Shown here one piece after another: positions 26,608 to 44,511 of a stretch of 64,000 bases of DNA. Below the pieces are notes generated by a model. That model did no database searches, had not been told where the DNA came from, and was given only the letters and a program-made list of their open reading frames with translations. A program made the translations under genes and the position numbers. Origin of the DNA: an uncultured Verrucomicrobiae bacterium. GTDB lineage: Bacteria > Verrucomicrobiota > Verrucomicrobiia > Chthoniobacterales > JAFAMB01. The DNA is taken from positions 24,310-88,309 of the forward strand of contig CAVVPV010000007.1 in assembly GCA_963750185.1 (NCBI GenBank), read 5' to 3'. The number at the start of each line of letters is the position of its first letter. Position 1 is the stretch's first letter.

Positions 26608-27882
26608 ATGGATTTCCAGAGATTGTTCAAACGAAAAGAGGAGGTTGCCACCCATTCGATGGCTGGGGAGCACCAGAAAGAGACGTTGGGCAGCCGGAGT
26701 GTGTCACTTTCTGAAGGCGATCTATTGGACGGTCAGGCGCCTGCAAACCTTCTCTGGAACAACGTGGGCGGTACGATCAGCGTGAGGGCGGACAAGATAC
26801 TCGGGATCCTCGAAGGACGGACACGGATCAAGGGGGCGGTTCTTCAGGAGATTTATCCGGCGCTATTCGAAAAGGATCCGCATCCGGGCACTGAGTTTCT
26901 CATCCCGCTCCAGATCGTCGTTACGCAACTTGAGGATGTTTTTGCTGCTATTTCATCCGGGGACCTGGGCGAGGAGAATTTCGAAACGCCGTTTGGTCAG
27001 CTTGCCCGGGAGGATGACGCCAGGTTTAAAGAGGGAACCGAGCCGGTGAAGCCCCCCGCGAAACCGATCGTGCTTACCGGGCAACCGAATGGAGTAACGG
27101 AAGGCCGGAACACACCGGTTCGCGAAGCCAGATCGAACGGCTCGGTTACAGTCCATTTAACGCAATCGCCGAACGGCGCTGCGCCCGTTATAGAGACTGA
27201 AGCGACAAACGGTGCCCCGACCGGGGTTGAGCAGAAACCGGTTCCTTCGCCGGATTCGATTCCGGCGCTCCCGATAATTGACGATGTTCAGGGCGACGCG
27301 CAAAGTTCTACAGTTCGGGGAACCACTGCATCGCCGAAGGAAGCGGAGAACCGCGCATGCCAGTCGTTGCCGGCGGATGCCAAAGCTGAACAGTCGCCGT
27401 ATCGCAGGCCGCGCGGCGGCAATCTCTCATCGGAATCTCCGACCGGTCTCCGCCACACTCAGAACAACGATGTTCGCCGCGAATGGCACGAAGCGTTGCA
27501 AGAACTCTTTCTGACCGACGAACAGCTTGATGGGTCCAAGGTCGCTGACCTGGTGTTGCAACTCCCCCGCGTTGCCGGCGTTGTGATCATGTTGGCCGAC
27601 GGCGCGGTCCTGGGAGGCGTCCTGAGCGGCGGACTCAACGAGTCGCTTTTGGGTCTTGCGCCTGGGTTCGTGCAGGATCTGGTCCGATTTACAGAGAGCA
27701 TGCGCGGCGGCCCGACCCGGTTCGTGACGCTTGCCGGGAACGCCTGCCTGATCAGCCTGACCATTGCCGGACAGGTGCTGATATTAGTTGCTCATGATGG
27801 GAAGAATCTTCCACCCGGTCTTCGCGAGCGTCTCGTGGCTACCGCGCACGCATTGAACATGATTTACGGTCCGCGGCCGTGA
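26608..27882 (+). CDS. Protein with disordered linker and C-terminal Roadblock/LC7-like domain
   Basis: Pro/Ser/Thr-rich middle; C-terminal VLQLPRVAGVVIMLADGAVL...LILVAH Roadblock-like pattern. Confidence 0.55.
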   Translation: MDFQRLFKRKEEVATHSMAGEHQKETLGSRSVSLSEGDLLDGQAPANLLWNNVGGTISVRADKILGILEGRTRIKGAVLQEIYPALFEKDPHPGTEFLIPLQIVVTQLEDVFAAISSGDLGEENFETPFGQLAREDDARFKEGTEPVKPPAKPIVLTGQPNGVTEGRNTPVREARSNGSVTVHLTQSPNGAAPVIETEATNGAPTGVEQKPVPSPDSIPALPIIDDVQGDAQSSTVRGTTASPKEAENRACQSLPADAKAEQSPYRRPRGGNLSSESPTGLRHTQNNDVRREWHEALQELFLTDEQLDGSKVADLVLQLPRVAGVVIMLADGAVLGGVLSGGLNESLLGLAPGFVQDLVRFTESMRGGPTRFVTLAGNACLISLTIAGQVLILVAHDGKNLPPGLRERLVATAHALNMIYGPRP

Positions 27883-27894
27883 AAAGAAAAGATC

Positions 27895-28317
27895 GTGGCC
27901 GGCTGCAGCGACAAAGAATTAATGGCGTGGGATTTCCGATCTTTGATCGGGTGCCTGCGCGAATATCAACGGAATACAGAAGCTGTCTGCGCGCTGCTCG
28001 TTCAGGATGATGCAGCCATCCTGGCGAAGGTCGCAACTGACGCTGATTTTGATACTGATACCTTGGGGGTTTGCTCGGCGATGATATTTGCAACCTCGCG
28101 CATGCTACTCGGAGAACTTGAGACCGAAGGCGATGTTCTGGGCCGAATCACAATTGGGACCAACTACAATCTTCTCGTCATGGAGATTACGCCGAAGATC
28201 GCTCTGGCGACTCTCTACAGAAACTGGTTTTCCACGGGGCTTCTAGAACACCAGGCGCGGGCGATTATGCCGCGGATGATCGATTACCTCGTTCGCGAGG
28301 GCTCGGAGGTCTCATGA
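27895..28317 (+). CDS. Roadblock/LC7 (MglB-like) protein
   Basis: EAVCALLVQDDAAILA...DTLGVCSAMIFATSRMLLGEL...STGLL resembles MglB. Confidence 0.7.
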   Translation: MAGCSDKELMAWDFRSLIGCLREYQRNTEAVCALLVQDDAAILAKVATDADFDTDTLGVCSAMIFATSRMLLGELETEGDVLGRITIGTNYNLLVMEITPKIALATLYRNWFSTGLLEHQARAIMPRMIDYLVREGSEVS

Positions 28318-29138
28318 TCCGTTCAGCGCTTGCTTCACCTTGGTTGCCGCTGGCTTATTGGACCGCGATTGTTTGCGCAGCCCTTTGCGCGCTACCCCAA
28401 TACCTGCGTAAGGGTCATACGCAACGCTCGTCGATTGCGAAGGTCTCCGACGTAGTAACGGCCCAGGTCAATCGTGTGTCACAGGTGGTTCAATCGCTCC
28501 CTGGAGAGAATTCGATCACAAGGCATCGCGAACCCTTTCATGTTTGGGTTCCCGCGGTCCTTTGCCTCAGAGGTTTCGATCGCAAGCCGGTCGCAGCAGA
28601 GGTCGAACCAAGAAAAGTGCCGACCGTCGCCGAAGCGCTGCGGAGTCCGACACCTGCGCCGGTTACGATGCTGTCAATTCGAGCAGATTCGGCGGAGGAA
28701 CCGACTGCAAACGTGTTATCGATTGAGTGCCGAACGAGTCTCGCGGTCAGCAATATGCATGGCCGGGCAGTTTCTATTCATGGCGTCGTTACGCAGGAAG
28801 TCGTCTCTCCCGCCGGAAAGATCCTGATTATGGCCGGCAGCCGGGTTGCTGGATCCGGTTTGTTCGATCCGGAGAGCGGACGGTTAAGATCCAATAGGGT
28901 CTGGACGATCGTCTTCGAAAACACTGAAATGAAGGTCCGTGCGCTTCTACTGGATCGTCCCGGCGGCCTCCTCGGCGTCATCGGGCAAGTGAAACAGGGT
29001 GAAAGCGTGCTCGCCACCGCAAGCGCTGACTCCGAAGGTGGCAGGCTTGAATTGGTTCCCGCGAACACACCGTTTACACTCGAACTGCACGGGGAAATTC
29101 AGCTTCGAGACCTCGCGTCAAACGAATCGGAGTACTGA
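28314..29138 (+). CDS. Membrane-anchored protein with TrbI/VirB10-like C-terminal domain
   Basis: One N-terminal TM, Pro-rich linker, IECRT...IHGVVTQEV...KILIMAGSRVAG...WTIVF...LLDR..GLLGVIG...VPANTPF pattern. Confidence 0.55.
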   Translation: MIRSALASPWLPLAYWTAIVCAALCALPQYLRKGHTQRSSIAKVSDVVTAQVNRVSQVVQSLPGENSITRHREPFHVWVPAVLCLRGFDRKPVAAEVEPRKVPTVAEALRSPTPAPVTMLSIRADSAEEPTANVLSIECRTSLAVSNMHGRAVSIHGVVTQEVVSPAGKILIMAGSRVAGSGLFDPESGRLRSNRVWTIVFENTEMKVRALLLDRPGGLLGVIGQVKQGESVLATASADSEGGRLELVPANTPFTLELHGEIQLRDLASNESEY

Positions 29139-29197
29139 TGATCGCATTCTTAAATACATCCGAACATAAAGCCAAATCAAACATTGATAGGAGAATT

Positions 29198-29650
29198 ATG
29201 AAACCCAGAGTTGTAACCAAGGAGCGACAGGAGGGGATCTCGCTGATTCAAGTGCTGCTGGCAATTTTGCTTGGCGCATTGACCGTAACCTGGGCTACGA
29301 ACACGATCGTCAACGGAATGGAGAAAGGGATCGCGACGAAGACGTTGACCGTAGTCGATGCAATTCAACAGGCGAAACAACAATTCCTGGTCGACAACCC
29401 GGAAACCGATCCCAATACAGCCGCCTCTTTCGCAAATCTCCAGCCGTATCTCATGGTTATGGGCATTCAGGTGAACGACGAATCGCAATTAATGGCGGGG
29501 ACTGGCGGGCGCACAATCTCGAATTACGGGTCATTCAATACGGGGATTACTTTGAGTAAATCGATCGATCCGAATTACGTGACGCCGAGTATGAAGCCGA
29601 TTGTTGTGATGATAAACAACGGTCTTGCTTCCGGCTCCACGGTTCAATAG
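29198..29650 (+). CDS. Major type IV pilin/pseudopilin
   Basis: RBS aggaga; class III signal RQEG/ISLIQVLLAILLG; AIQQAKQQF. Confidence 0.75.
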   Translation: MKPRVVTKERQEGISLIQVLLAILLGALTVTWATNTIVNGMEKGIATKTLTVVDAIQQAKQQFLVDNPETDPNTAASFANLQPYLMVMGIQVNDESQLMAGTGGRTISNYGSFNTGITLSKSIDPNYVTPSMKPIVVMINNGLASGSTVQ

Positions 29651-29755
29651 CTGGTCTCCTCGTAGAAAGTCGATGCCATCCGAAGAAAATGCCTTGCATT
29701 CCATCGAGGCGCTGATTACAAGCACAATAGACTACGTATATAATATAACGTTGTT

Positions 29756-30970: not shown

Positions 30971-31087
30971 CGTTCAGACAGATTGGAGAAGGCAATTTCA
31001 AGAATTGGTTGCGCATAAAAATAACATAACTAGACGACAGTTACGAGATAGATATGACGCGGACGAGATTGCGACATTGATACAGTC

Positions 31088-32080
31088 ATGTTGAACGATA
31101 TTCAGACATTTATCCGGGAAATGCCGCTGCGGTACTATGTGAGAGGTGGGCTATTTTCACGACAAGAGCCGATGATCGTGTTCCACGTAGGCGAGGAGGA
31201 GGTCGAGGCGCTCGTGTCCTACAGGAAAAAGGCGTTCGGATATGAGGACGAACTCCACCGTGACCCGGATGCGCCTCCGACGACGTCGTACGGGCAAGCG
31301 TACAGACCGGGTGCGAACGGAAGGAGAGTCACAGCGAAACTTGCTTCCAGATACCGTGTTCCGCAGCGGTGCCAGCATCTATTTGTTGTTGATACTCCGG
31401 CGGACGAGCTGTTTCTCAATCTCTTCACTCTTGAAAAGTTGCGCAGGCGAACAATCGATGAGGCTCTGACGGATCTTCGCGAAGCACCGGGACAAATTTT
31501 GTCCGGATGGGACCGGCCCGATTTTCGATGGCATATCCTGGATCCCGACCTTCGACTTTCCGGCAGCACAAAAGGAGCAAGCGATGATCCGATCCTGGTC
31601 ATTGGCCTTTCGGAGAATGTCTGTTTGCCGTTCGAATTCTGGAGCGACGAACAGGGAGCCGCGATCGTCGGAATACTGCCGTTGGCCGTGGCTGTATTGG
31701 CATGGTGTAATGCGGTGCTCCCGACCGATAAAAGAGATTCTGTCATCCTTGTGGCAGCCGAAAAAGGGGTTGTCGCGGCGATCATAAAGCGCGGAAAGCT
31801 CACGAATTTACTTCGCGCTCAGACGATTGACGACGTGCTGAGCAAGATTCGGCTGAATCTCGACGAATTCGGGCTTGAGGATCCGGCGGTGTATCTCTGG
31901 TGCTCAAACCCAGGGGAACCAGGCGATGATGATGTGAGCTACGATGGTATTACGATCATTGATGAGGATCACCTCAGGGCGGTACTCGGTGCGCCATTGC
32001 TTGTGATGGCATCAACCGGAAAGCGGACCGCTCACGACAGACCTGTCCCGCATCTATTAAACTGGTTAGCCAAACAATAA
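31088..32080 (+). CDS. PilM/GspL-like cytoplasmic accessory protein (divergent)
   Basis: Soluble 330 aa; position before the PilN/O/P-like genes. Confidence 0.45.
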   Translation: MLNDIQTFIREMPLRYYVRGGLFSRQEPMIVFHVGEEEVEALVSYRKKAFGYEDELHRDPDAPPTTSYGQAYRPGANGRRVTAKLASRYRVPQRCQHLFVVDTPADELFLNLFTLEKLRRRTIDEALTDLREAPGQILSGWDRPDFRWHILDPDLRLSGSTKGASDDPILVIGLSENVCLPFEFWSDEQGAAIVGILPLAVAVLAWCNAVLPTDKRDSVILVAAEKGVVAAIIKRGKLTNLLRAQTIDDVLSKIRLNLDEFGLEDPAVYLWCSNPGEPGDDDVSYDGITIIDEDHLRAVLGAPLLVMASTGKRTAHDRPVPHLLNWLAKQ

Positions 32081-32092
32081 AACGAGGTTTCT

Positions 32093-32746
32093 GTGCAGCC
32101 TTTTTTTGTTTCGGAAGAAAAACTGTCAAAGCAAGCGTACCGGTACGATTCCCGGTACCGGATTGCCGCGTTGGCTGTGATTGGCGCCATAGCGCTCCAG
32201 ATGCCGCTAGGTTTTTTTATGCTTGTTGAGAATCTAGTCAGGTCAGAGCAGGAAACCCGAGAAGGTCTCGCAGTCCAGAAAAAGATACAACTCACTGAAA
32301 GTCTTGGCGCCTTCAAAGAGACCGAGTTGCAGATGGAGCAAATTAAAAGCTGGGAACCGATTTTGCGAGGCAGGATGCCAGTGAGCGCAGTCATTGGTGC
32401 TGTCGAACAAACGATACCACCTGGTGTTGTTCTCTCCAGAATGGCTGTGGAAGCGGCGGGCTACCACACGGTCCCACTCGGATCAGAGATATTCCGTGTC
32501 CCTGAGATATACACGATCACACTCAACGGCGTATTGAACGGAGATAACCTGCAGGAGTGGAAGGAATTCATTGGTCGACTCCTGCGAAGGCTTCCTCCGG
32601 GCAGCAGTGTGGTTTCCTGCGTTGCCGATTCTGGCAAGGATTCGAACAAGGTCCCAACGGCTTGCAGCGCCACGCTGCAGGCTCAAGCCAATGGCAATTA
32701 TTTTCCACTTGGAGTCAGCAAGATCGATGCGGAGGGAAATTTATGA
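32093..32746 (+). CDS. PilN-like bitopic protein
   Basis: TM, coiled coil, then VEQTIPPGVVLSRM...ITLNG. Confidence 0.65.
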   Translation: MQPFFVSEEKLSKQAYRYDSRYRIAALAVIGAIALQMPLGFFMLVENLVRSEQETREGLAVQKKIQLTESLGAFKETELQMEQIKSWEPILRGRMPVSAVIGAVEQTIPPGVVLSRMAVEAAGYHTVPLGSEIFRVPEIYTITLNGVLNGDNLQEWKEFIGRLLRRLPPGSSVVSCVADSGKDSNKVPTACSATLQAQANGNYFPLGVSKIDAEGNL

Positions 32747-33339
32747 CGAGAAGATCGAGTCCGGTTCTGAAGAGGGACCCGAGGAGCGCAGTTTTGCTGA
32801 CCCTGGTACTTGTCGGTATCGTCGTTTGTGAAGTGATCTCACTCAGTTGCTTTTCGACAAAGAATAGTGTGCTGCGGACTGCGAACGAGCGGCTAGAAGC
32901 TGCAAATCGGCAGATGGAACGGCACATCTCGGAATTGCGATCCAGTGCGGAAAAAATCGCTGCGACGTTTGCGCGGTTGAATGACGGGATCGTTCGAGTA
33001 TCTCGAAATGAAGGGCGGTTGCCTGTTCCCGGCCGGAATACAAAGGACGATCCTGACGTCGTTGACAACCGAATTGAAAAATCGATTCGGAACTATGGTT
33101 TCATCGTCAAGCCGGTTGACGGACCGCATCATGAAATGAGCGTCATGTTCGAGGCCGGTTCAAACAGCGTCGAGCTTCATCGTTTGCTACCATTTCTGGC
33201 AGAACAGGAAAATTCGAACGCCTTTCTCTTTCTCGAGAGAGTCGATCTTGCCAGGCCGGCTGGGGTCCCCGCTTTTTCGATGAATCCAACTGCACTTGAG
33301 ACCCGTCTTCTAATCCGCGTCTTATCCGGACCAAAGTAG
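32743..33339 (+). CDS. PilO/GspM-like bitopic protein
   Basis: ATGA overlap with previous gene; TM, coiled coil, HRLLPFLAEQEN...LERVDL. Confidence 0.6.
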   Translation: MTRRSSPVLKRDPRSAVLLTLVLVGIVVCEVISLSCFSTKNSVLRTANERLEAANRQMERHISELRSSAEKIAATFARLNDGIVRVSRNEGRLPVPGRNTKDDPDVVDNRIEKSIRNYGFIVKPVDGPHHEMSVMFEAGSNSVELHRLLPFLAEQENSNAFLFLERVDLARPAGVPAFSMNPTALETRLLIRVLSGPK

Positions 33340-33912
33340 ATGATTAGACTAATCGCTCTCACTTCGATTCTGGCTATATGGGCGAGTATCCTTCACGCCC
33401 AGGTCCAATTGCCGGATCTATATTCTTATCACTATACGATGACTCGGCGGGATCCGTTTATTTCCGCCGATGCTCCAAAGACAATCATTGATGAGCATCA
33501 GGAGCCGCGCGGAATCGTCAGCGGCGATATCGTTAGTCGATATTTGGAGAATATTGTTAAACTAATCAAGAATCAGCTCTATCTCGGCGGAATTTCAATT
33601 GGTGACACGCCGTTTGAAAGTATCGCTCTCATCAACGGTGTCGATTTCCATGTGGGAGATAAGGTCCCGTTGGATGCCGCTAGCAAGGATCTCCAGAGCA
33701 TCCAACAGTTGGCTGCGACATATGGGCTCCCATTGGTGACCGACCAGAAGGGGACGTTTGTTGTCGAAGTAGGCCGTGTATCGGAGAACGGCGTCGATCT
33801 GGTTCTCCCGGGCTTCAAAGCGGTGATCTACCATCTGCCCCTGCCGAATGACAGTGCGTCTGACGTGGTCCGGCTCGAGAAGAAAAAGAAAAAACCGCGA
33901 CCCAGCAATTAA
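33340..33912 (+). CDS. PilP/GspC-like exported protein
   Basis: Signal peptide, RRDPF motif, LGGI...ALING...VGD...VGRVSENGV; precedes the secretin. Confidence 0.6.
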   Translation: MIRLIALTSILAIWASILHAQVQLPDLYSYHYTMTRRDPFISADAPKTIIDEHQEPRGIVSGDIVSRYLENIVKLIKNQLYLGGISIGDTPFESIALINGVDFHVGDKVPLDAASKDLQSIQQLAATYGLPLVTDQKGTFVVEVGRVSENGVDLVLPGFKAVIYHLPLPNDSASDVVRLEKKKKKPRPSN

Positions 33913-33926
33913 TCTGAAGCTCGGTC

Positions 33927-35672
33927 ATGTTCAAAACGATTACAGGAGTGAGTCTTGTCATTTTCCTAGCGATCCTTGGCGCGCTGGGACAGGAGACTCC
34001 GCGTCAAACGCCGCAACTCATCGACGAACAAGCAACTCCGCCGGGATCCGCGGCAAATTCCCCAACTGCCTCGCCAGCACCTGGTTCTTCACCGACCACG
34101 ACAGATGACTTGGAGCGTGCGATCAAGCAACATGAGGAAGCGCAACAACCGCAGGAGCCGGAGGTTATCGATCCGGCCCGTCCGCGGACCCATCGGTACA
34201 CTGATCAGCCCGTTGGAAGTATCTTACGTGCGCTTGCTGAACAAGCCGGAATTAACTATGTCGAGCCTGGAATCCCCGAAACAGAGGTTACGTCGGTCGT
34301 GCTGACGAGTATGACGCCGCTCCAGGCTTTTGAGGCGGTCGCCCATGCGCACGGGTTCAAGATTCAAATCGACCGCGAAACCGGTGTCTACACGCTTGAA
34401 CGCTCAGACATCGCTTCCCCCAGCTATTACGAAGTCCGGCGCTATACGTTGAGCTATCAGGTCGCAGAAGATCTTCTCCAAGCTGTAGCCGGATATCTTG
34501 GGATTCAAATTAATTCGGCTGCCGACTCAAATCCGGCATACCCGAAACCGAGAAATACTGGAGGAGGTTCCGCCGCCTCTTCCGGTGCGCAGGATGTGAC
34601 ATCCGGAGCGCAATCACTTTACTCTGCTGGAACCGAACAGACTAATCCACGGTTCATCTCTGGTTTGCCGTTTGACGATCCACTCTCGACCGGCGGGTTT
34701 GGGAACGGGAAGGAGAATGCGGTGTGGATCGAACGCTCCACAAATTCTTTGATGGTCCGCGCGACGCCGCGCGAGCACGAAGGATTATTGGAACAAATCC
34801 GTTTCTGGGATCGCGAAGAGAATCAAATTCAAATTAACACCTATGTTATCGAGATCACCAAGAACGACGATCTTTTCGGCGGAGTCGATTGGAGCAACAC
34901 GCTTGGACAGAATGGAGCCACGTTCACCCTGACAGGAAATGTTGGTGCGACACCGGTTGGGATTACATCGGCCGGGTTTGGCGGCCCGTTTTTTAACAAT
35001 GGGCTCATTTTGAAGTTCCCCGACGTTGCAGCGACGATCAGGGCGCTCACGCAACGTGGAAAGCTGCGTTCGAATAACTCGCCGATTACATTCACGAAAA
35101 CGGCCGTGCCCGTTCAGATCAGAAGTGTGACGCAGCAGACGATCTTCTTGCAAACCGCGGCGACGGCGAATGTGCAAGCCACGACAACGCCATATACGTT
35201 CACGACCGGGCTGACGATTGATCTCGTCGGGCGGATTCTGAAGGGTGGTATCATCGATTTAAAGATTAACCCAGCTCTCTCGACTCAAACGGGACAATCA
35301 CCGGCTCAGCCCGGAACGAATGCAACAGTGCCGATAATCTCGACCAGGACGGCAACCGCAGACGTTCAAGTTAGAAGTGGTGACGCAGCCGTCATTGGAG
35401 GCATCACCCAGGATGTCGATAACTATACGGAAAATGGAGTGCCCGGGGTGAGAAAATTGCCAATCATCGGTTACCTTCTGAGTTCAAGACAGAAGATGAA
35501 GGACCGGACGAATCTCGTGATCATCGTTTGGCCGCGAATCATTAAAGGGACAATGGAGAGAAAAGTCCGGGTAGGTTCTGATGAAGGGGAGATGCTTAAT
35601 AATATGGCTGATTTGCCAGGTGAACCGCCACCGGTGCCATTTGGGCGGGATGGGAAAGAGGCTCACCAGTAG
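33927..35672 (+). CDS. Secretin (GspD/PilQ family)
   Basis: Signal peptide, STN-like N domain, TNSLMV, GVDWS, ISTRTATADVQVRSGDAAVIGG, GVPGVRKLPIIGYLL, NLVIIVWPRII. Confidence 0.93.
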   Translation: MFKTITGVSLVIFLAILGALGQETPRQTPQLIDEQATPPGSAANSPTASPAPGSSPTTTDDLERAIKQHEEAQQPQEPEVIDPARPRTHRYTDQPVGSILRALAEQAGINYVEPGIPETEVTSVVLTSMTPLQAFEAVAHAHGFKIQIDRETGVYTLERSDIASPSYYEVRRYTLSYQVAEDLLQAVAGYLGIQINSAADSNPAYPKPRNTGGGSAASSGAQDVTSGAQSLYSAGTEQTNPRFISGLPFDDPLSTGGFGNGKENAVWIERSTNSLMVRATPREHEGLLEQIRFWDREENQIQINTYVIEITKNDDLFGGVDWSNTLGQNGATFTLTGNVGATPVGITSAGFGGPFFNNGLILKFPDVAATIRALTQRGKLRSNNSPITFTKTAVPVQIRSVTQQTIFLQTAATANVQATTTPYTFTTGLTIDLVGRILKGGIIDLKINPALSTQTGQSPAQPGTNATVPIISTRTATADVQVRSGDAAVIGGITQDVDNYTENGVPGVRKLPIIGYLLSSRQKMKDRTNLVIIVWPRIIKGTMERKVRVGSDEGEMLNNMADLPGEPPPVPFGRDGKEAHQ

Positions 35673-35721
35673 GGGTAATGCCTATTATCTGAGTGCGTTG
35701 CGGCAACGAAAGGGGGTACAT

Positions 35722-36201
35722 ATGAAACGAGAGGAGATAGAGCAGAAGACCCGTCTAACTTGTTGGTCACACGCTGGATTTAGCCTGGTGGAAACGATCA
35801 TCAGCATCGCCCTCCTGGCATTTTCTGTCGCGGGCTCATTCGAACTTCTGCGACTATCCGATCTGCAGGCGAAACATACCTCGGTCGACAATAGGATCAC
35901 AGAGTTGCTTCGGGAATATAGCGACTACGTCCTGTACCTGGACTACAACCGATTGCCGAACGATGGGGAAAGTCTTGGGCAAGGATATCTTTATGAAGTG
36001 TACGACTCGGCGTCGAAAACCTCGAGAGGATTTTACCACTACCTTATCACCGTGAATGTCCAGACATACAATTCAGGGACAACCGGAGAGTACAAAAATA
36101 TTACAGTTAGCATGAACTGTCAGGCGGATGAGCACGCATACTCTGATCAGCTTGTTACCCAAACAATCGTGAGTGATGCCATTACGCGTTCAAAATCCTA
36201 A
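35722..36201 (+). CDS. Minor pilin (PilV/GspI-like)
   Basis: AG/FSLVETIISIALL class III signal. Confidence 0.85.
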   Translation: MKREEIEQKTRLTCWSHAGFSLVETIISIALLAFSVAGSFELLRLSDLQAKHTSVDNRITELLREYSDYVLYLDYNRLPNDGESLGQGYLYEVYDSASKTSRGFYHYLITVNVQTYNSGTTGEYKNITVSMNCQADEHAYSDQLVTQTIVSDAITRSKS

Positions 36202-36739
36202 GTCAAAATCGAGAACCGAAGGTTTCAGCCTGCTTGAGGTTCTGGTCGCACTGTCAGTTCTTGCGGTCGCGTTATTCGCGGTTGGACAGACAATCACGCT
36301 TGTGTTGCTTCGGACGACAGCCGCTATGGAGACAGCGCGCCAGGAAGATCAGGGTGCGCGCTTTGTGGCGAGCATAACTCTGGCGACAAAAACTGCGACC
36401 GAGTGGGGCATTTATTCGAATCAGGTTGCCTACAACAAAGGGTCGAACGCGAATTTGGCAGCGGCCGGAAATATTCTTGAATGCAAGTCCGCTACTGAGT
36501 CGGGGACCGGCATAGATTATCTGTTTGTTTACGATCCGGCGGCCCGGACTTTGAAGAGATACGAAAACGGTCTGAATACGGATCGGATGACTTTGAAAAA
36601 CGTCTCTCCTGTGCCCGCGGAGACGGACGGGCAGATTTTTGACCAGGATCAGGGCCTTGTTCAAGGACATTGGCAATTGTCGGTTCGTGGCCGGTTATTG
36701 ACCTTTGCGGCTTACGGTACGCCGCTACACATGCGGTAG
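36173..36739 (+). CDS. Minor pilin (PilW/GspJ-like)
   Basis: EG/FSLLEVLVALSVL class III signal. Confidence 0.85.
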   Translation: MMPLRVQNPKSKSRTEGFSLLEVLVALSVLAVALFAVGQTITLVLLRTTAAMETARQEDQGARFVASITLATKTATEWGIYSNQVAYNKGSNANLAAAGNILECKSATESGTGIDYLFVYDPAARTLKRYENGLNTDRMTLKNVSPVPAETDGQIFDQDQGLVQGHWQLSVRGRLLTFAAYGTPLHMR

Positions 36740-36760
36740 CTTAAGCCTGGAGGAGCGCAT

Positions 36761-38035
36761 ATGGACAACAATCGCAAGCGACGGCAGCAACGCGGATATG
36801 CCCTGGTGGCCTGCCTGGGTGTCGTCGCGATAACGGCTATTCTCGTCCTGATGATTTTTTCGTTCACGGAGGCGACTCAAGAAGCAGCGACGAAGCGGCA
36901 GTATCAGGACCGTGGAGAAGAACAAATTGAAGCGGAATTATCCGCGCTTCATAGCGCTATCGAGGCGAATTTTCGGGCAAATGCGCAAGTTGAGATCAGC
37001 GGGCTTTCTTCGAATTCCGGTCAATCCACTGGAGACCTCAAAGATGGCATGTACAACGTCGCCATAGCGGCCAGGGGGAGCCAGTCTGTTATAGAGGCAA
37101 CCGAGACGCACTACAGCCCAAGTCAGTTGAGCGATGGTGACGATCCATTTCGGGGTGCAACTGCATCTACGATTGAAATTGACGTGACCGGTACAGCGAA
37201 CCGCCTCGGCGTGACGAAGCCCAATGGTGATAATGACTATCTTTCGCTTAGCGCGCACCCTGTCTTATCGATCCGGCAAATACCGTTATCCGAGTTCTCT
37301 GTCTATTCCGGCGGCGGCGATATCGCCTTGAACGCGACGGCGACACCGAATATCGGGCGGATTTACATTAACGGGAACCTCAATATCAGCGGCGGGATTG
37401 CGAACTCTTCGTACCCAGTGACAACATTTGGTGATGTTATTCTCGGCGGAGGCGCCGGACTCGAAGCGCGGTCGAGTCCTAAGGCGGCTCCGATCGCGCT
37501 CCCGGTGACAACCACTGCCGACGATAAATGGCCCTCGTTGGCTAAATCGACCCAGGAATCTACCGTGCTGACAGGTCGCGATTTACCGATGTCCATGGTT
37601 CAAGCGACGTCAAAGGACGAGCTGACAGCGCCTCCTTTGCCTCCCAACACGGATCAGCAAAAGGACCGCCTCCGACTTTGGCGTCAATGCTCGCGCGTGA
37701 TTTCCGAGAATGCCGGAAAAATCACTGTCACCGGAGGAGCGTCAAACGAGGAAGAGAATTACAAGGTAGCGCGGACGCAAATCTACAATGCGTGGGGTCC
37801 GCCCATCATCGTTTTCGATGCGGCAAAGATTGCGCCAGGCGCAGGGAAAACCAGTTTTTACATCGGATCAACGAGTTCAACGGCGGCAGTGTATGTGATC
37901 AACGCGGGCACACTGACCGGTGACCTAACAATTGTCACGCCCCATCCAATCCTTATCAGGGGCGGATTTAATGCGCAGGGTACACTGCACGCAGCGAGCC
38001 TGATTACGGCCCAGGGAGTATTTGCAGTTCCATGA
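36761..38035 (+). CDS. PilX/GspK-like large minor pilin
   Basis: QRG/YALVACLGVV (no E5, typical of PilX/GspK); GRIYINGNL beta-rich C-domain. Confidence 0.75.
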   Translation: MDNNRKRRQQRGYALVACLGVVAITAILVLMIFSFTEATQEAATKRQYQDRGEEQIEAELSALHSAIEANFRANAQVEISGLSSNSGQSTGDLKDGMYNVAIAARGSQSVIEATETHYSPSQLSDGDDPFRGATASTIEIDVTGTANRLGVTKPNGDNDYLSLSAHPVLSIRQIPLSEFSVYSGGGDIALNATATPNIGRIYINGNLNISGGIANSSYPVTTFGDVILGGGAGLEARSSPKAAPIALPVTTTADDKWPSLAKSTQESTVLTGRDLPMSMVQATSKDELTAPPLPPNTDQQKDRLRLWRQCSRVISENAGKITVTGGASNEEENYKVARTQIYNAWGPPIIVFDAAKIAPGAGKTSFYIGSTSSTAAVYVINAGTLTGDLTIVTPHPILIRGGFNAQGTLHAASLITAQGVFAVP

Positions 38036-38054
38036 ACGGGCGGGAACAGGATTT

Positions 38055-40250
38055 ATGTCAGCGCTTACCGCGATGAGTGAACCGTGGAGTCTGGACGTGG
38101 CGGAACAGCCTTTGCAGGTTCTCCTGAATTCGGTTGTGATTGAGCCATTCAGACTGAACGGGCCTAATCACGAGAGCACTAGTGGGTTCCTCAAGTACCT
38201 CGACGAACTCGATCAGGATTCCAACCTGCTTTCAGCCTGGCAGCACCCATCGTTTTACGAATGGGCTATCCTCCGGTTCCGCAGAGATCGATCCGAATTC
38301 TTTGGGACACCCAACGAGCTGTTCGCTGCTCTCTTTCGGTCTAATAGGGAGGGACCGCATGTAGCGGTCGATATCAGCAACTATACGCCGGTATCCGGCG
38401 AAAGGATCAATATGCCGGCCGTCCGCATCCCGCTGGTTCCGATTGCGTACCGGTTCTCACATGGCCAGAAGACTGCGGACGAGGTGACGGTGGCGAGCTG
38501 GATACCTGGGCTGGCACACGCGATCAGAGGAGTTCATTGGTCGGTTTTGAATCGATTTTTTGGAGCCAGGAAAGTTCATTGCGTCTGGTGCGATCCCGAA
38601 GCGATCCGTGCGTTCCTGGCTCGGAATGCGGATCGCATCGTGATCACACCGAGGTTGCCGGAGAACGACGTCGTGCCTCGAAAAGAGTATCTCAACGGTC
38701 AGGGGAGACCCTGGATCGATCTGAACGATTTCGCGTTTCCGGAGGAGCTGTTGAAGCGGTTGACTGTGACGCTGTTCAAAGCGATCCCGGTCTATTGGTC
38801 GGAGTGGATGGCGACGCTGGCGGTAAGTGAGAAGCTTTCGCCAGATGATCACAACTATCTTTCCCAACTTTATCAGCATCGTGTCACGTTCGGGGAAGTC
38901 GACGCAGAGCCGCGCCATCTGGAAAAATGGCTGGCACACGCCGCCAATAGCAAAATCAATATTCCCGGACTCGCCGATCGGCTCAAGCCAGTCAGCGACA
39001 GCTCGAGTATCCATGTCAAAAAAGTCGAACAGGTCGATCTCGAGAAACTCAACCGGCAGATCGCCCAGGGCAAAATCTCCACGGAGGATGTTGTTCATTT
39101 GATCCTCACTCGCGGAATTGATCTCGACGTTTCCGATATTAAACTCCGATCCGAAGACCTTAGCGGGCTGTATGTTCACTACAAAACCAACGGTTACTGG
39201 ATGAAACCGCTCCGTCTTCAGTGGGAAGCGGCAAACCTGATTATCTCCGTCCTGAAAGACAAAGCCGGTTTGCGCACTGAACGGATCGACATTCCGCAGG
39301 ATGGTCAGTTCCAGATCGGTCACAATCAACGAACCTATTTGTTTCGGATCCACACCTCCTATCATGTGACCGGTGAACAGGTAATCCTGCGCATGAAGCG
39401 TGACGCGACGTCGATCCGATCGCTTGCGTCGCTCGGACTGCCGGAGAGATACGTTGAAAAGATTCATCAAATTCTGCATGGCCGAACCGGGCTGATTGTT
39501 TTTTCCGGACCGACCGGGTGCGGCAAATCAACAACGATCTACAGCATCCTCAACGAGTTCGATCCGCTTCAGCACAACATCCAGACGGCAGAGTCGCCGA
39601 TCGAAGTTGTGATCCCGCACGTGAACCAGGTGGAGATCAGCGATTTTGGTCGCAACACCTTTTTGAACTGGGTTCGGGGCATTGTTCGGGAGGCTCCTGA
39701 TATTCTGATGATGGGTGAGATCCGCGATTTTGAGACGGCAGACGCTTTGTTGCGCGTGGTGAACACTGGACATCGGGTCATTACGACGCTTCATGCCAAT
39801 TCGGCTGCAATGGTTCCGATCCGTTTTTTGCAGCTTGGCGTGCAACCCTACCTCCTTGCATCAACGCTTCGGATGGCCCTTTCGCAGTGTCTTGTCAAAA
39901 TGGTCTGCACGCATTGTGATGAGGAGGTGCCGATCCCGAGTGCACAGAAACTTCGAAAAATGAGAATCGATGCTGACTGGTTGGGCGGCGCTGAATCATT
40001 CAAAGTCGGGCGGGGATGCAGTCACTGCAACGGGACCGGCTTTGAGGGCCGGAAGGCGCTGTACGAAGCGTTGATCGTAGACGAAGAAATCGCGCACGAG
40101 CTCCACGGCCAGCCAACGCCTGAGCGGTTGCGTCGATTGATGCTCGAGCGAGGAGAGGCGACTTTACTGGAGAAAGCGGTTCGAGAAGCTGCGCGCGGGA
40201 CGATCAGCCTGGAGGAAGCAACACAACTGGCGCTCGAACTGGCGGAGTAA
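38055..40250 (+). CDS. GspE/PilB assembly ATPase
   Basis: SDIKL, PQDGQF, Walker A GPTGCGKST, ILMMGEIRD, TGHRVITTLH, CxxC...CxxC zinc motif. Confidence 0.95.
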   Translation: MSALTAMSEPWSLDVAEQPLQVLLNSVVIEPFRLNGPNHESTSGFLKYLDELDQDSNLLSAWQHPSFYEWAILRFRRDRSEFFGTPNELFAALFRSNREGPHVAVDISNYTPVSGERINMPAVRIPLVPIAYRFSHGQKTADEVTVASWIPGLAHAIRGVHWSVLNRFFGARKVHCVWCDPEAIRAFLARNADRIVITPRLPENDVVPRKEYLNGQGRPWIDLNDFAFPEELLKRLTVTLFKAIPVYWSEWMATLAVSEKLSPDDHNYLSQLYQHRVTFGEVDAEPRHLEKWLAHAANSKINIPGLADRLKPVSDSSSIHVKKVEQVDLEKLNRQIAQGKISTEDVVHLILTRGIDLDVSDIKLRSEDLSGLYVHYKTNGYWMKPLRLQWEAANLIISVLKDKAGLRTERIDIPQDGQFQIGHNQRTYLFRIHTSYHVTGEQVILRMKRDATSIRSLASLGLPERYVEKIHQILHGRTGLIVFSGPTGCGKSTTIYSILNEFDPLQHNIQTAESPIEVVIPHVNQVEISDFGRNTFLNWVRGIVREAPDILMMGEIRDFETADALLRVVNTGHRVITTLHANSAAMVPIRFLQLGVQPYLLASTLRMALSQCLVKMVCTHCDEEVPIPSAQKLRKMRIDADWLGGAESFKVGRGCSHCNGTGFEGRKALYEALIVDEEIAHELHGQPTPERLRRLMLERGEATLLEKAVREAARGTISLEEATQLALELAE

Positions 40251-40252
40251 TG
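39882..40252 (+). repeat. Copy 1 of a 371-bp direct repeat (3' end of the ATPase gene)
   Basis: Matches 43007-43377 with 5 mismatches by eye. Confidence 0.95.
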
Positions 40253-40774
40253 GGTGACCAAGGGCGCTGCAACTGTTTGAGTCTGCTCGCGGCGATGATA
40301 GTCCTCTAAAAGAAAACATTGAAACAGACAATCTTTGTTTCCAGCTTCCGGTTAGCCGGCGCGATGGCGTCCTAACTGCCGAGCTAGCTTTCCGCCACAT
40401 TGACCAGTCTCGGCAGTATAGTAATCGGATCGTCCAAGGGCCCATCAAAATACTGAACAGCACCTTGAGTCCCGGCGTGTTGAAAAGATGTGCTGTTGAT
40501 GTTTACTTTTTTTACCACCACCGGCGTTGCACGCTTAGGTTCCGGGATCTCGGTTCTCTTAGAGTGCGACGGTCTCGGCATCAATTCGGGGGAATGGCTG
40601 GATCGCCCTGGCTCGCGTCAAAAACACGTCGGGGCGCAAAACTCATAAGCTTGCATTTTTGCGGAAATGCATCAGGTGGTTGCTCTTTTTGGCAACTTCC
40701 TCTATGGGTTTGGATGCTTTTGACGATATGTGCCCCTCACGAATCGTGAACGACTCACGCACGGCGGAACGCTC

Positions 40775-41587
40775 ATGAGTAGCCCGATAAAATATCAGAA
40801 TCCACCTGTGGCGGAAGTCGCATTCTCGGCCTCATTTCAAACGGCAAAAACGATGTCCGCAGCGTTTATAGGCATTTTTTGGTTGCAGATACGGGACGAC
40901 TTCCCGAAACTAACCGAGAATTCGCCTCTACCGATTATAACCGAGTCTCCAAAGGACTCCGTTGCGGCTGAGACGCTGCAGATGCAGGTCCAAATGCTAA
41001 ATTTGCCTGATTTGCGGAGAAGTATCTTAACGAGTCATGATGGAAGGCGCATGATTCAGATTCAGCAAAACAAGTTCATATTAAATTGGAAGCGGGGCCA
41101 AAGTAGCACATACTCTGATTTTGAAACCGCACTAGCCGCATTCGATTCAATGCTCGAACGATTGAGTAAGGCCCTAGTGGCGGAAGAATTCGGCGAAATC
41201 ATTTATAACCAGTATGAGTTACAGTATGTTAATTTAATTGGACCGGACAATGGTCTTGCCCTTGTTGGCGAGGGAGGTGTACTCGTGGATCATACTAGGC
41301 AATCTTCGGGTGAGCGCTTTTTGCCGGAACCAACCGCGTTCAATTGGACGTCGTCGTATCAACTCCCGAATGGAATGGGCCGCTTACATATAGGTGCTCA
41401 AGCCGTCCTTGTGCCACCGGAGAACCAACGCCACGTTCGTCTTGACGTACTGGCGAGGGGGTTCCCCCATAATGGTGAAAGCGTTAGCAAAGAACAATGG
41501 TTTCAACTTGCTCACGAGTGGATTGTGAAAGGATTCACGGATTCTACGTCCTCGGTTCTCCACGCTCAAGCCTGGAAGCGACTATGA
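40775..41587 (+). CDS. TIGR04255-family protein
   Basis: YQNPPVAEVAFSASF, MIQIQQNKFILNW, ELQYVNLI, WFQLAHEWIVKGF. Confidence 0.8.
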   Translation: MSSPIKYQNPPVAEVAFSASFQTAKTMSAAFIGIFWLQIRDDFPKLTENSPLPIITESPKDSVAAETLQMQVQMLNLPDLRRSILTSHDGRRMIQIQQNKFILNWKRGQSSTYSDFETALAAFDSMLERLSKALVAEEFGEIIYNQYELQYVNLIGPDNGLALVGEGGVLVDHTRQSSGERFLPEPTAFNWTSSYQLPNGMGRLHIGAQAVLVPPENQRHVRLDVLARGFPHNGESVSKEQWFQLAHEWIVKGFTDSTSSVLHAQAWKRL

Positions 41588-42450
41588 AGTTGATTAGGAA
41601 AGACATTTCCTTGAGTGGTAGTGATTGGCAAGATGCTGACACTCGCCACGAGGTAGAGCACTTCTACGGTGGGAGTTGCAAAATTAGCACAATGGTAAAC
41701 CTGCGGGTGTCTAGTCCGCCGATTAGTGATGCATTTGGGGAGCCACTACGTTTCGAGACGGGGCCTCCTCCCGCAATCAAAACGGCGATTTCCGCCGATG
41801 CTTCGATTACTCTCACGCCAATTACTAGTCTCAATGTTTCCGGTTGGCAACCCCCTGGGTCGCGGGTATATCAAAGCGAGTCACTGCCGTTCGCTAAACG
41901 GGCTGAGCTATTTGAAGCGCTAAGCAAAATAAACGCTTATTTTTCAGACATCGAACGTAGTGCGGATATTTCTTTAGTTTTATGGCTTGAACCCATGGAA
42001 CAGCGCCGCTTGTTTCAAGTGAAATATACACCGCTGCCAGTTGTAGGCGAGACTTGGACGATCGGACTGGATAGCCAAACTATGGTGGTATCCAACCCGG
42101 AAGCCCGTTTGAAATGGGAGGTACTTGACAGGGACCCATTTCTGTTGTCCGAAACTGTCAAGGAGGCCCAAACGAAAGCGCAATCAGGCGAGTTCGCAGC
42201 CGCGTATAAGTTGATCTTTCGTTGTTTGGACCGGGCCATGAAGGCAGGGGCTCTTGACGATATTGATTCTGTGCTTTCAAACATCAGCGCCGAAGATATG
42301 ACCTTGGAAATATTGATCGCTCTATTAACAGCGACGTTACCGGTCAGAACGCGGCTACCCGCTCGCAAGGCGTTTTTTCTAGCGACTGAGAAAGTGGCCA
42401 AAGATCGCAATCGGTGGAGTAAATCTTTGCTTTCCGGTCTAGAGGGTTGA
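41584..42450 (+). CDS. Hypothetical protein, translationally coupled
   Basis: ATGA overlap with the TIGR04255 gene; helical C-domain LIALLTATLP...LLSGLE. Confidence 0.7.
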   Translation: MKLIRKDISLSGSDWQDADTRHEVEHFYGGSCKISTMVNLRVSSPPISDAFGEPLRFETGPPPAIKTAISADASITLTPITSLNVSGWQPPGSRVYQSESLPFAKRAELFEALSKINAYFSDIERSADISLVLWLEPMEQRRLFQVKYTPLPVVGETWTIGLDSQTMVVSNPEARLKWEVLDRDPFLLSETVKEAQTKAQSGEFAAAYKLIFRCLDRAMKAGALDDIDSVLSNISAEDMTLEILIALLTATLPVRTRLPARKAFFLATEKVAKDRNRWSKSLLSGLEG

Positions 42451-42803
42451 TGCCAATGTGCGCGTTGCTGAGACGTGTGCCGGATTCAAAGTGCGCGGAA
42501 ATTGAGGTAGCCGCAGTTACAATTAAAACGATTAACGATGGCCAAAGGCACATCGGCATAGCGTTTCGCGAGGACGAAGAATGTTGCAAACTGTTGCATT
42601 TGGCATGGCACTACAAGATGCGCCTGGATAACGTAGATGCGACTTTCTATTGGGTTGAGCACAAGATAGATCAACTTAGGCTGTACGGCGTTTTGGCATT
42701 TTGCGACCTTATCATTCAAGCGAATCCCGCGGGCATACCGTATGCCTTCGATTCTCCCAATGATTGCTTCGAAATTTTGCAGCAGTTGACAAGAGGCGAA
42801 TGA
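42450..42803 (+). CDS. Hypothetical protein, possibly a C-terminally truncated permuted papain-like enzyme
   Basis: TGATG coupling; QRHIGI...LHLAWH...IPYAF, stop soon after. Confidence 0.5.
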   Translation: MPMCALLRRVPDSKCAEIEVAAVTIKTINDGQRHIGIAFREDEECCKLLHLAWHYKMRLDNVDATFYWVEHKIDQLRLYGVLAFCDLIIQANPAGIPYAFDSPNDCFEILQQLTRGE

Positions 42804-43006
42804 GTCAAGATAGAAATCGATCGTTGGCAATCTTTATCCAGGGTGTCCGCGTTCGCCTGTCCTGACTCGTTGCCGCGGAAACTGCGGAGGCTTCTGAAAG
42901 GTCACTCTAAAGTTGCCACTAATGGTCGAGTTAAGGGCTTCAAATGCAGCCACTTTTTGGAACACAAAACAGATCCACGGATCTGCGGGAATGCGGGACC
43001 AATGGG

Positions 43007-43377
43007 TCGCAGCGCCTTATCAAAATGGTGTGCACGCATTGTGATGAGGAGGTGCCGATCCCGAGTGCACAGAAACTTCGAAAAATGAGAATCGATGCTG
43101 ACTGGTTGGGCGGCGCTGAATCATTCAAAGTCGGGCGGGGATGCAGTCACTGCAACGGGACCGGCTTTGAGGGCCGGAAGGCGCTGTACGAAGCGTTGAT
43201 CGTAGACGAAGAAATCGCGCACGAGCTCCACGGCCAGCCAACGCCTGAGCGGTTGCGTCGATTGATGCTCGAGCGAGGAGAGGCGACTTTACTGGAGAAA
43301 GCGGTTCGAGAAGCTGCGCGCGGGACGATCAGCCTGGAGGAAGCAACACAACTGGCGCTCGAACTGGCAGAGTAATG
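43007..43377 (+). pseudogene. Orphan duplicate of the ATPase C-terminal ~122 codons (copy 2 of the direct repeat)
   Basis: Near-identical to 39882-40252; lacks Walker motifs and a credible start. Confidence 0.93.
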
Positions 43378-43440
43378 GCCACAATTCTTTTTTCGGTCAG
43401 TCAGGAAAACACAACGGTCGTTCGCGCTTGAAGGATTAAA

Positions 43441-44295
43441 ATGTTAATCGAAAGTTTGAAGAAACTCTTGGACCTGTGGGTCCAGCAGGGCACACAAGTC
43501 GAGCGGTACTATGGAGGCAGCGACAAAGAGCTGAAAGAAATGCTCGAGATCGCCGGATATCAAGGTCAGGCCGCCTGTGCATCTGTTTGTTATTGGTGGA
43601 TTCGGCGCCATTTGACTTATGGCATTATATCCTCCCCTGAAAAGCCCGCATTCGCGAAGTCGAATTTTGATATCGTCGAGAAATGGATAGTGGCGAAAAA
43701 GCAAACGGCCTATAGCAAAGCTCACCAATCCGTAGACACGCCCTATGAATCCATGATCGATGAGAAGGATGCATTGATCCACTCCTTGGTTTCGAAGGAG
43801 AACTTTAAACCTTGGGGCAGCATTGCTAACTCAGACACTAACATAAGTGCAGTCGTTAAAGCGCTGAAGAATTGCGTTGAGAGCTCTTACAAAAGCGAAG
43901 CTGAGATGCGGAACATTTTGACTTCGGACTTGGACCAGGGACATCCGTGGAAGAACAAATCAATATTCGAAAGCGATTTCAACCAGGCGGCTGATTGTTA
44001 TTTCATACTCTCGGTGAAGACGACGGTTTTCGGTCACTCAATGGCTATCCGCTACGAGGCATGCAATGGGGTCATCCATTTCGTCGATCCTAACCTTGGG
44101 CACTTTAAATTCATTGGGTGGACAGCCTTGGAGCAGAACCTCCAGCACTATTGGATTTGCATTTGGATGCACGAGGTCGACAAGGTACGCTCCTTTCCTC
44201 CCAAATTTCGCTTTTTGCAACACCGCGTGTATCAGTTTCGCCGGGCTCCAAAATATAAAGACATCGCGGATTTTTTCGTCTGGCGCGACATTTAG
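43441..44295 (+). CDS. YopT/AvrPphB-like (C58-like) papain-fold cysteine protease
   Basis: RBS aagga; ACASVCYWWI (Cys), GHSMAI (His), HFVDPNLGHFKF (Asp); no signal peptide. Confidence 0.75.
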   Translation: MLIESLKKLLDLWVQQGTQVERYYGGSDKELKEMLEIAGYQGQAACASVCYWWIRRHLTYGIISSPEKPAFAKSNFDIVEKWIVAKKQTAYSKAHQSVDTPYESMIDEKDALIHSLVSKENFKPWGSIANSDTNISAVVKALKNCVESSYKSEAEMRNILTSDLDQGHPWKNKSIFESDFNQAADCYFILSVKTTVFGHSMAIRYEACNGVIHFVDPNLGHFKFIGWTALEQNLQHYWICIWMHEVDKVRSFPPKFRFLQHRVYQFRRAPKYKDIADFFVWRDI

Positions 44296-44511
44296 CTGAG
44301 CTCGAAGTGTTTTCAAAAGGGTTTCTGTACAGAATGACACCTCGAAAAACTCTTGAGTAACGAACCAATCCTACAGAACATAACGGCAGCCTGTACGCAT
44401 TTTCGAAAAGAGATTAACATTTCTCAGCGGCGCGTGAGAAAATCTCACTGGGCGCATCCGAAAACGCGTCCAACTGGCAAGGCCAAAAATACAAAGGATC
44501 TCTTTGACCAT

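Follow-up and report, generated by a model that had tools for sequence, protein, structure and literature searches.

Results

An operon for a divergent type IV filament, headed by Roadblock and VirB10 homologs

The stretch of DNA analysed here (the window, 64,000 nucleotides) is part of contig C7 (CAVVPV010000007.1) of G000, an 87% complete genome of an uncultured Verrucomicrobiota bacterium of the order Chthoniobacterales, and the sequencing runs containing it are soil metagenomes, with no RNA run among those listed. Between positions 26608 and 40250 it carries an operon of 14 co-oriented genes on the + strand, separated by short gaps or overlapping; a first-pass annotation of the same DNA had the orientation right and counted 13. 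We propose, with about even confidence, that these genes specify a divergent type IV filament machine restricted to the family, under control of the MglA/MglB type and with a pore-less VirB10 homolog co-opted as a scaffold. The proposal is based on the homology of the parts, the loss of the VirB10 antenna, the conserved linkage of the genes and matching gene trees. The genes of the operon are the following:

26608–27882, +, ORF1, 424 residues, with a Roadblock/MglB-like C-terminal domain by structure comparison
27895–28317, +, ORF2, 140 residues, stand-alone Roadblock-like protein by indirect sequence evidence
28314–29138, +, ORF3, 274 residues, antenna-less VirB10/TrbI homolog by model, structure comparison and alignment
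29138–29650, +, ORF4, pilin-like, with class III signal G/ISLIQ; lineage C orthologs pass PF07963
29756–30970, +, inner-membrane platform protein, GspF/PilC family (PF00482, E 1e-25)
31088–32080, +, ORF6, 330 residues, conserved in the family, PilM-like by position and size only
32093–32746, +, ORF7, one membrane helix, PilN-like by position and topology only
32743–33339, +, ORF8, one membrane helix, PilO/GspM-like
33340–33912, +, ORF9, signal peptide without a lipobox Cys, PilP/GspC-like by position only
33927–35672, +, secretin, 581 residues, short N region (PF00263, E 2e-27)
35722–36201, +, minor pilin 1 (N_methyl, E 3e-4)
36173–36739, +, minor pilin 2 (N-methyl motif in Pfam)
36761–38035, +, large pilin-like protein without Glu5, by sequence; a paralog lies in the pilus locus on contig C5 of G000
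38022–40250, +, divergent assembly ATPase of the PilB/GspE family (PF00437, E 2e-74), here called gspE

Pfam matches for the platform, the secretin, the ATPase and two minor pilins agree with the filament core that had been claimed for this locus. The ATPase retains Walker A, Walker B and the His box, and its Asp box is changed from ED to ES across the whole clade. The secretin, whose N region shows one weak Secretin_N match (residues 170–293), would be the sole outer-membrane channel encoded in the operon. By its pattern the large pilin-like protein presumably resembles GspK/PilX. No gene for PilT or for a prepilin peptidase is present at the locus, as had been noted before and as Pfam and NCBIfam scans confirmed. 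Two prepilin peptidase matches over cut-off (PF06750) were found elsewhere in G000, on contigs C5 and C27, and PilT-like genes scoring under cut-off are located on C27 and, in 4/4 relatives, in a second cluster described below. Thus, compared with the generic type IV filament model, ATPase, platform and pilin are clustered, the secretin is present as an accessory gene and the prepilin peptidase is encoded elsewhere in the genome. A scan for promoters and terminators was uninformative, with 5 promoter-like sites against 12.6 expected and 23 terminator-like sites against 20.5.

Four separate genes of the sizes of PilM, PilN, PilO and PilP precede the short secretin, which we take to be the gene order of type IVa pili (T4aP). 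The identities PilM/N/O/P assigned to these genes in the first-pass annotation were not borne out by profiles, and the names rely on gene order, size and membrane topology: neither profile searches of four alignments (ORF6 to ORF9) against the Protein Data Bank (PDB) nor Pfam scans of 24 orthologs yielded a significant match, the nearest being one ORF8 ortholog that matched T2SSM_b under cut-off (E 0.003). Protein A and dodecin appeared in the PDB profile searches with ORF3, ORF6–9 and a downstream protease (see below); none of these matches was significant and they were taken as chance.

ORF3 retains the VirB10 barrel and has lost the antenna

ORF3 is predicted to consist of a hydrophobic membrane helix (residues 10–28), a disordered linker modelled with low confidence (residues 31–131) and a beta-barrel. 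Structure comparison aligned this barrel with VirB10 of Xanthomonas citri at Z 13.6 (root-mean-square deviation 2.5, 114 residues aligned); the top 7 rows were all VirB10-family chains, the best unrelated row reaching Z 4.3, and the top Foldseek matches were likewise all of the VirB10 family. Moreover, a profile of the ORF3 family finds PF03743 proteins, and 7/8 of the distant matches that were scanned pass the TrbI cut-off. A PDB profile search with the ORF3 alignment gave nothing significant. The TrbI/VirB10-like gene of the first-pass annotation is upheld as a VirB10 beta-barrel.

Alignment of 28 ORF3-family proteins with 12 full VirB10/TrbI proteins revealed that the antenna span measures 18–23 residues in 28/28 of the former versus 72–84 residues in 12/12 of the latter. 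The deletion is clean and falls between two conserved motifs, both of which are retained. In the window, a 22-residue loop (residues 225–246, positions 28986–29051) takes the place of the antenna, and the model contains no helix past residue 25. The two-helix antenna of VirB10 forms the outer-membrane pore (available text of PMC4182333) and is described as conserved across all architectures of the type IV secretion system (T4SS), with a mean of about 57 residues (available text of bioRxiv 10.1101/2025.08.29.673095). As this element is deleted, ORF3 cannot form a pore in the usual way. The earlier suggestion of an additional envelope-spanning subunit consequently needs correction, since what is missing is precisely the segment with which VirB10 traverses the outer membrane.

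Literature searches for VirB10 with a secretin, with type IV pili or in Verrucomicrobia, and for co-option of VirB10/TrbI, returned no such description, subscription papers being outside their coverage. The term "VirB10-like" was not found among the papers listed by the search; those listed for MglA, Roadblock and pili dealt only with Myxococcus, Bdellovibrio or GTPases in general, and nothing relevant was listed for pili of Chthoniobacterales or Udaeobacter.

Roadblock proteins precede ORF3, and MglA lies nearby in relatives

In the model, ORF1 is composed of a conserved N-terminal domain (residues ~20–145), a disordered linker and a Roadblock/MglB-like C-terminal domain (~290–424). The C-terminal domain compared with the archaeal Roadblock protein 9jue at Z 12.3 (root-mean-square deviation 2.8, 116 residues aligned) and with MglB of Myxococcus xanthus at Z 10.9. 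The N-terminal domain had no fold match among the matches listed for the full-length model, which were dominated by the Roadblock domain. Evidence for ORF2 is indirect: P0131, in which ORF2 and ORF3 are naturally fused, scores above the Robl_LC7 cut-off, and the ORF2 ortholog of G009 matches the same family at E 0.047. Both Roadblock-like genes of the first-pass annotation are thus upheld, one by fold and the other indirectly. ORF2 was seen only in the window's genus and there only in the window's own operon lineage (type A; operon lineages are designated A, B and C).

Homologs of MglA were found in 41/43 genomes of the family. There is none within the window; in G013 and G016 an MglA gene lies immediately upstream of ORF1, and in G004 a contiguous series on one strand runs VirB9, a DUF4388 gene, MglA, one small gene, ORF1, ORF2 and ORF3. 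In these three genomes MglA is located within four genes of an ORF1 copy, the distance used to define MglB/Roadblock coupling in the available text of PMC4316618, where the proximity of MglA genes to PATAN and Roadblock genes is already described. Another MglA, preceded by a protein that matches the ORF1 C-terminal domain, is encoded on contig C35 of G000.

Distribution, linkage and trees

The family survey covered 43 genomes, many of them incomplete and related, so that the counts are descriptive. A full-length ortholog of the platform gene (E under 1e-60) is present in 32/43 genomes. For the secretin, no match under 1e-45 was found in 300 genomes of other families across the phylum, with four candidates scored per genome. 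ORF3-family genes amount to 40 copies in 34/43 family genomes; weak matches occur in 26/261 genomes of other families in the order (best 5.5e-14), and the two of these that were retrieved are full TrbI genes within T4SS clusters.

In 20/32 genomes, belonging to 5/10 genera, ORF3 shares the strand of the platform gene and lies 0.5–2.0 kb upstream of it, in line with the earlier expectation that the leading genes would be conserved neighbours of the core. In the window the stop of ORF3 overlaps the start of the ORF4 pilin gene. ORF1 lies directly 5' of ORF3 in 35/40 copies by a hand tally, the rest being two contig edges, one remnant and two absences. In G014 the genes from ORF3 through gspE have been lost as a block, with ORF1 and ORF2 retained. 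The ORF3 and ATPase trees both have the topology ((A,B),C), and lineages A and B co-occur inside one genus, which indicates that ORF3 was already part of the block when it was copied or moved. The ORF1 tree recovered B and C as clades and did not resolve A as one. In the ORF3 tree (midpoint root, long branch), ORF3 is not derived from the VirB10 of the family's own T4SS.

In lineage C, a secreted-looking HExxH-type gene without a Pfam match follows ORF1/ORF3 (G024 L020:13251–14222; G053 L108:13331–14206), and the same type of gene is found in G000 (C15:30847–31743) behind an ORF1 paralog that lacks ORF3.

Placement of the core among type IV filament machines

NCBIfam equivalog models matched the core genes far below their cut-offs. 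The ATPase scored 256 bits with GspE (cut-off 630) and 253 with PilB (cut-off 676), the platform had GspF as its best match (147 bits, cut-off 424), and the secretin scored 130 bits with GspD (cut-off 351) and 119 with MshL (cut-off 250). Control ATPases passed (GspE of E. coli, 692 bits, and of Acinetobacter, 693; PilB of Acinetobacter, 863), and other Verrucomicrobiota ATPases scored 520–670 bits, mostly also under cut-off. Among solved structures the best match of the ATPase was Thermus PilF, with 222 bits versus 178 for GspE.

The ATPase constitutes a long-branch, family-restricted clade. A quick first tree of 67 rows came with long-branch warnings, and two of its references were partial. 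It was rebuilt from 32 of these rows, T4b sequences, a partial Klebsiella sequence and two other G000 ATPases being among those dropped; the references included two or three GspE, one typical PilB and no MshE. In the 32-row tree the operon ATPases form one clade (ultrafast bootstrap, UFBoot, 99; stem 1.05), and the first tree was similar. This clade falls outside the GspE clade (UFBoot 100) and outside every supported Verrucomicrobiota clade, with backbone support under 60 and a long branch that may be drawn to the PilT root. The core, proposed earlier as an undescribed system, thus lies within neither the GspE nor the PilB clade as sampled.

Two further divergent type IV filament loci occur in G000 (C5:2996–20393 and C27:6710–24065), each with a prepilin peptidase; the C27 locus also has a secretin and a PilT-like gene, and the ATPases of both score only 280–320 bits with GspE/PilB.

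A second cluster and the T4SS of the family

In G024, G045 and G053 the genes behind a VirB2-B10-like operon are a DUF4388 gene, MglA, a type IV pilin gene and a gene for a PilT-like ATPase. A related cluster with VirB9 as its sole T4SS gene is present in nine genomes, mostly of the window's genus, and contains a Rep3-like gene, a DUF4388-FGE gene, MglA and often a PilT-like gene; it is split in G007, G012 and G017, and lies within 10 kb of ORF3 or of the pilus operon in G004, G006, G011 and G017. Positions of both kinds of locus are:

G006 L114:9085–15945, G009 L205:7011–14070, G004 L204:1105–9382 and G011 L018:14327–18840, solitary-VirB9 cluster
G000 C22:9484–20613 and C38:1217–12355, G024 L097, G045 L206 and G053 L207, VirB2-B10-like operon (names other than VirB4, VirB9 and VirB10 given by order and similarity)

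A VirB9-like match exists in 38/43 family genomes, and ORF3 is present without one in G013, G047, G022 and G056 (69–87% complete). In G014, G008 and G001 (72–83% complete) the T4SS is kept, and neither ORF3 nor the platform gene of the pilus operon was found. Five genomes tested for a full VirD4 (PF02534) had none, one partial match being seen, and the VirB2-B10-like operon of the family is possibly a domesticated, non-conjugative T4SS. This operon, with a lipoprotein gene and a ClpB-like AAA gene behind it, is widespread in the family.

The 3' end of the operon: a duplication, an islet and a candidate protease

The genes downstream of gspE had been described as cargo. What had been overlooked is that the 3' end of gspE is duplicated: 372 nucleotides, 98.7% identical, are present at 39881–40252 and again at 43006–43377, bracketing these genes. 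The region contains:

40253–43005, +, strain-level islet with a low G+C content (0.48–0.50)
40775–41587, +, TIGR04255-family gene in the islet
41584–42450 and 42447–42803, +, two further islet genes
about 42915–43006, repeated mobile-element end in the islet; a short repeat of it also occurs at C11:39402–39450 and in other contexts in reads
43006–43377, +, second copy of the gspE 3' end (98.7% identity)
43441–44295, +, orphan C58/YopT-like cysteine protease candidate (C46, H199, D216), species-level neighbour of gspE

In run X1, islet contigs have about half the depth of the gspE and protease contigs. Contigs of X10, X11 and X13 bridge the gspE end and the protease, the islet being uncovered in these runs (an absence of cover only), and one X3 contig joins unique gspE sequence, the repeat and 11 letters of the protease side. 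By this depth and these bridging contigs, the islet is a strain-level insertion, and in this species the protease gene starts 63 nucleotides after the gspE stop. An assembly artefact as the source of the duplication was rejected, as three studies have runs with islet contigs, and the islet end continues into the repeat on contigs of X2, X3 and X4. The element at 42915–43006, which we presume to resemble an IS21-family end, may have caused the duplication. Two smaller frames were not taken as genes of the system, one of 94 residues at 40465 and one of 143 residues at 42944, the latter being the duplicated gspE end.

The protease was tentatively described before as a signal-less cysteine protease ending the locus. 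It indeed has no hydrophobic signal segment, it has the C/H/D motifs, and its language-model neighbours carry PF03543 (atlas score 0.96; recognition value 2016, under the 2300 mark), so that a C58-like enzyme is plausible from its sequence features; the family assignment itself falls short, with 18 bits against a PF03543 cut-off of 23 and a score also under the TIGR01586 cut-off of 53. No homolog was found among 218 candidates, and a PDB profile search was not significant. A 32-residue tblastn match in an amino-acid permease gene of G011 (E 0.003–0.006) was taken as chance. PF03543 itself occurs in 2/121 genomes of the order: in G009 it lies ~330 kb away from the operon, and in G051 on a separate contig. 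Neither the islet genes nor the protease were found in 20 loci of 12 other genomes, and the toxin-like genes expected after gspE were retained in 0/10 of the other species whose loci extend at least 1 kb beyond it. The islet and the C58-like gene are probably recent neighbours of the operon and not its substrates.

Beyond the protease, at 44353–46888, an MscS/MscK-like gene is apparently split into frames of 496 and 307 residues, and several read contigs have a 1-nucleotide deletion near 45730, in the region of this gene. On the other side of the operon, positions 25332–25640, between a permease and a GNAT gene, contain inverted repeats of 21–22 nucleotides and short tandem units, and are probably a dispersed repeat element.

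Discussion

According to the proposed mechanism, the ATPase and the platform would likely polymerise pilins through the secretin into a surface pilus, after processing by a prepilin peptidase encoded elsewhere, with ORF6–9 perhaps serving as a PilMNOP alignment complex. The Roadblock proteins, together with MglA, probably set where or when this happens, as a form of polarity control. The antenna-less ORF3 is likely an inner-membrane-anchored periplasmic scaffold and not a pore; it may oligomerise close to the secretin, possibly kept in place by the solitary VirB9, and in the cytoplasm it may connect to ORF1. Positioning and retraction could be provided in trans by MglA and the PilT-like ATPase of the second cluster. 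Of the polarity-regulated filament machine suggested by the first-pass annotation, what persists is the filament and its probable regulation, by virtue of the Roadblock homologs, the conserved linkage and MglA beside ORF1 in relatives; the delivery of effectors does not.

Several points weigh against the proposal. The major pilin candidate, ORF4, has Gln and not Glu at position +5 in lineages A and B, Glu being found in lineage C, and the assignments of ORF6–9 have no profile behind them. ORF3 is placed elsewhere in 7/32 genomes (in G052 at contig ends) and no intact ORF3 was found in 5/32; intact type A ORF1-ORF3 pairs exist without the pilus operon in G002, G003, G011, G012 and G015, which shows that the pair can persist by itself; four of these five genomes have a type B operon at another site. 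A physical association of ORF3 with the pilus is a prediction from gene linkage and trees, and kin genomes in the counts are not independent. Finally, no ortholog of the cluster with MglA, the PilT-like gene and solitary VirB9 was found in G000, 87% complete as it is. This absence is likely due to an assembly gap, since sucCD, which neighbour the cluster in relatives, were likewise not found in the assembly.

A minor but real possibility is that ORF1–ORF3 work with MglA and VirB9 (the solitary one or that of the T4SS) as a separate polarity or landmark module, for example a pore-less ring or a modulator of a T4SS core, which merely fronts an ordinary divergent pilus operon. The coupling of ORF1 to ORF3 (35/40) is indeed tighter than that of ORF3 to the pilus (20/32), the orphan pairs are intact in five genomes, VirB9-like genes are found in 38/43, and in G004 solitary VirB9, the DUF4388 gene, MglA and ORF1–ORF3 are contiguous. 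Evidence against such independence comes from the congruence of the ORF3 and ATPase trees over three lineages, the stop-start overlap of ORF3 with the pilin gene, the joint deletion of ORF3 to gspE in G014, and a tree (with midpoint root and long branch) in which ORF3 does not stem from the family's T4SS VirB10. We consider it decidedly unlikely that the core is a non-canonical type II secretion system (T2SS) for Sec-exported proteins with ORF3 as a GspB-like secretin scaffold. A single operon with one ATPase and no PilT, the GspF and GspD models as best matches of platform (147 bits) and secretin (130 bits), and the membrane anchor, linker and beta domain of ORF3, a layout that we presume to be shared with GspB, would all fit a T2SS; on the other side, the scores are far below the cut-offs (424, 351 and 630), the ATPase scores equally with PilB (253 bits), has Thermus PilF as its best solved match and falls outside the GspE clade, and there are four separate M/N/O/P-sized genes. 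Contact-dependent effector delivery with the C58-like protease as part of the cargo, which was the earlier version, is highly improbable. It draws on the C58-like features of the protease and on its position 63 nucleotides past gspE in islet-free strains, and it is contradicted by the absence of the trailing genes behind gspE in 10/10 other species (three of these genes lying in the strain-level islet), by the lack of protease homologs among the 218 candidates, by the 2/121 genomes of the order with PF03543, neither near the operon, by the lack of a signal peptide for a Sec-dependent route and by an ORF3 without pore helices.

Returning to the filament machine with a co-opted VirB10, a more daring version would be a hybrid nanomachine in which the secretin replaces the VirB10 antenna as the pore, the pore-less VirB10 ring and VirB9 form a T4SS-derived periplasmic chamber around it, MglA and Roadblock proteins position the whole, and the operon ATPase and the PilT-like ATPase of the second cluster, a cluster that in other genera stands behind a VirB2-B10 operon for which no VirD4 was found, provide the power; we regard this as unlikely. 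In any case, a natural antenna-less VirB10 present family-wide offers a ready test of the roles of barrel and linker apart from the pore, and the conserved position of ORF3 in front of the filament genes, alongside Roadblock genes, suggests that an unrelated machine has co-opted a T4SS core subunit. The operon is also a starting point for work on surface motility or adhesion in soil bacteria akin to Chthoniobacterales.

Comparison with known systems

With VirB10/TrbI of T4SS, ORF3 shares the membrane anchor, the disordered linker, the beta-barrel and the motifs that flank the antenna; it differs in lacking the antenna itself and in belonging to an operon without VirB4, VirB6, VirB8 or VirB9. 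The candidate protease has the C/H/D motifs of Peptidase C58 (YopT/AvrPphB) in the same order and PF03543-carrying language-model neighbours, but scores below the family cut-offs, without sequence homologs or a conserved link to the operon.

The T2SS (GspC-M) is similar in its one-operon layout, in the lack of a retraction ATPase and in the best, albeit sub-threshold, platform and secretin scores, whereas the operon ATPase lies outside the GspE clade and the secretin has a short N region; no match to GspC, GspL or GspM over cut-off was found in the operon by Pfam, NCBIfam or the ORF6–9 profile searches. The mannose-sensitive haemagglutinin (MSH) pilus differs in its secretin (119 bits to MshL, cut-off 250), and Pfam and NCBIfam matched no second AAA gene or TPR gene corresponding to MshM/MshN in the operon. 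Tad and type IVb pili are more distant, with 62 bits to TadA and 64 bits to the T4b secretin versus at least 250 for GspE/PilB. The operon resembles the "generic" systems of Denise et al. 2019 (PMC6668835) in having ATPase, platform, pilin and secretin with no specific equivalog that fits; in its available text, that study reports no further associated proteins systematically tied to system type, and "Verrucomicrobia" is absent from its main text, while its supplements may class related systems.

T4aP with MglA/MglB, as in Myxococcus xanthus, differ from the system described here in their PilB (253 bits for the operon ATPase, cut-off 676), in the single operon headed by Roadblock genes and a VirB10 homolog, in the lack of PilT at the locus, in the Gln5 pilin of 2/3 lineages and in the additional domain of ORF1. 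What they share with it is the ATPase, platform, secretin and pilins, Roadblock proteins of MglB-like fold in the operon, four genes ahead of the secretin that agree in size and topology, and MglA together with a PilT-like gene in the second cluster of relatives.

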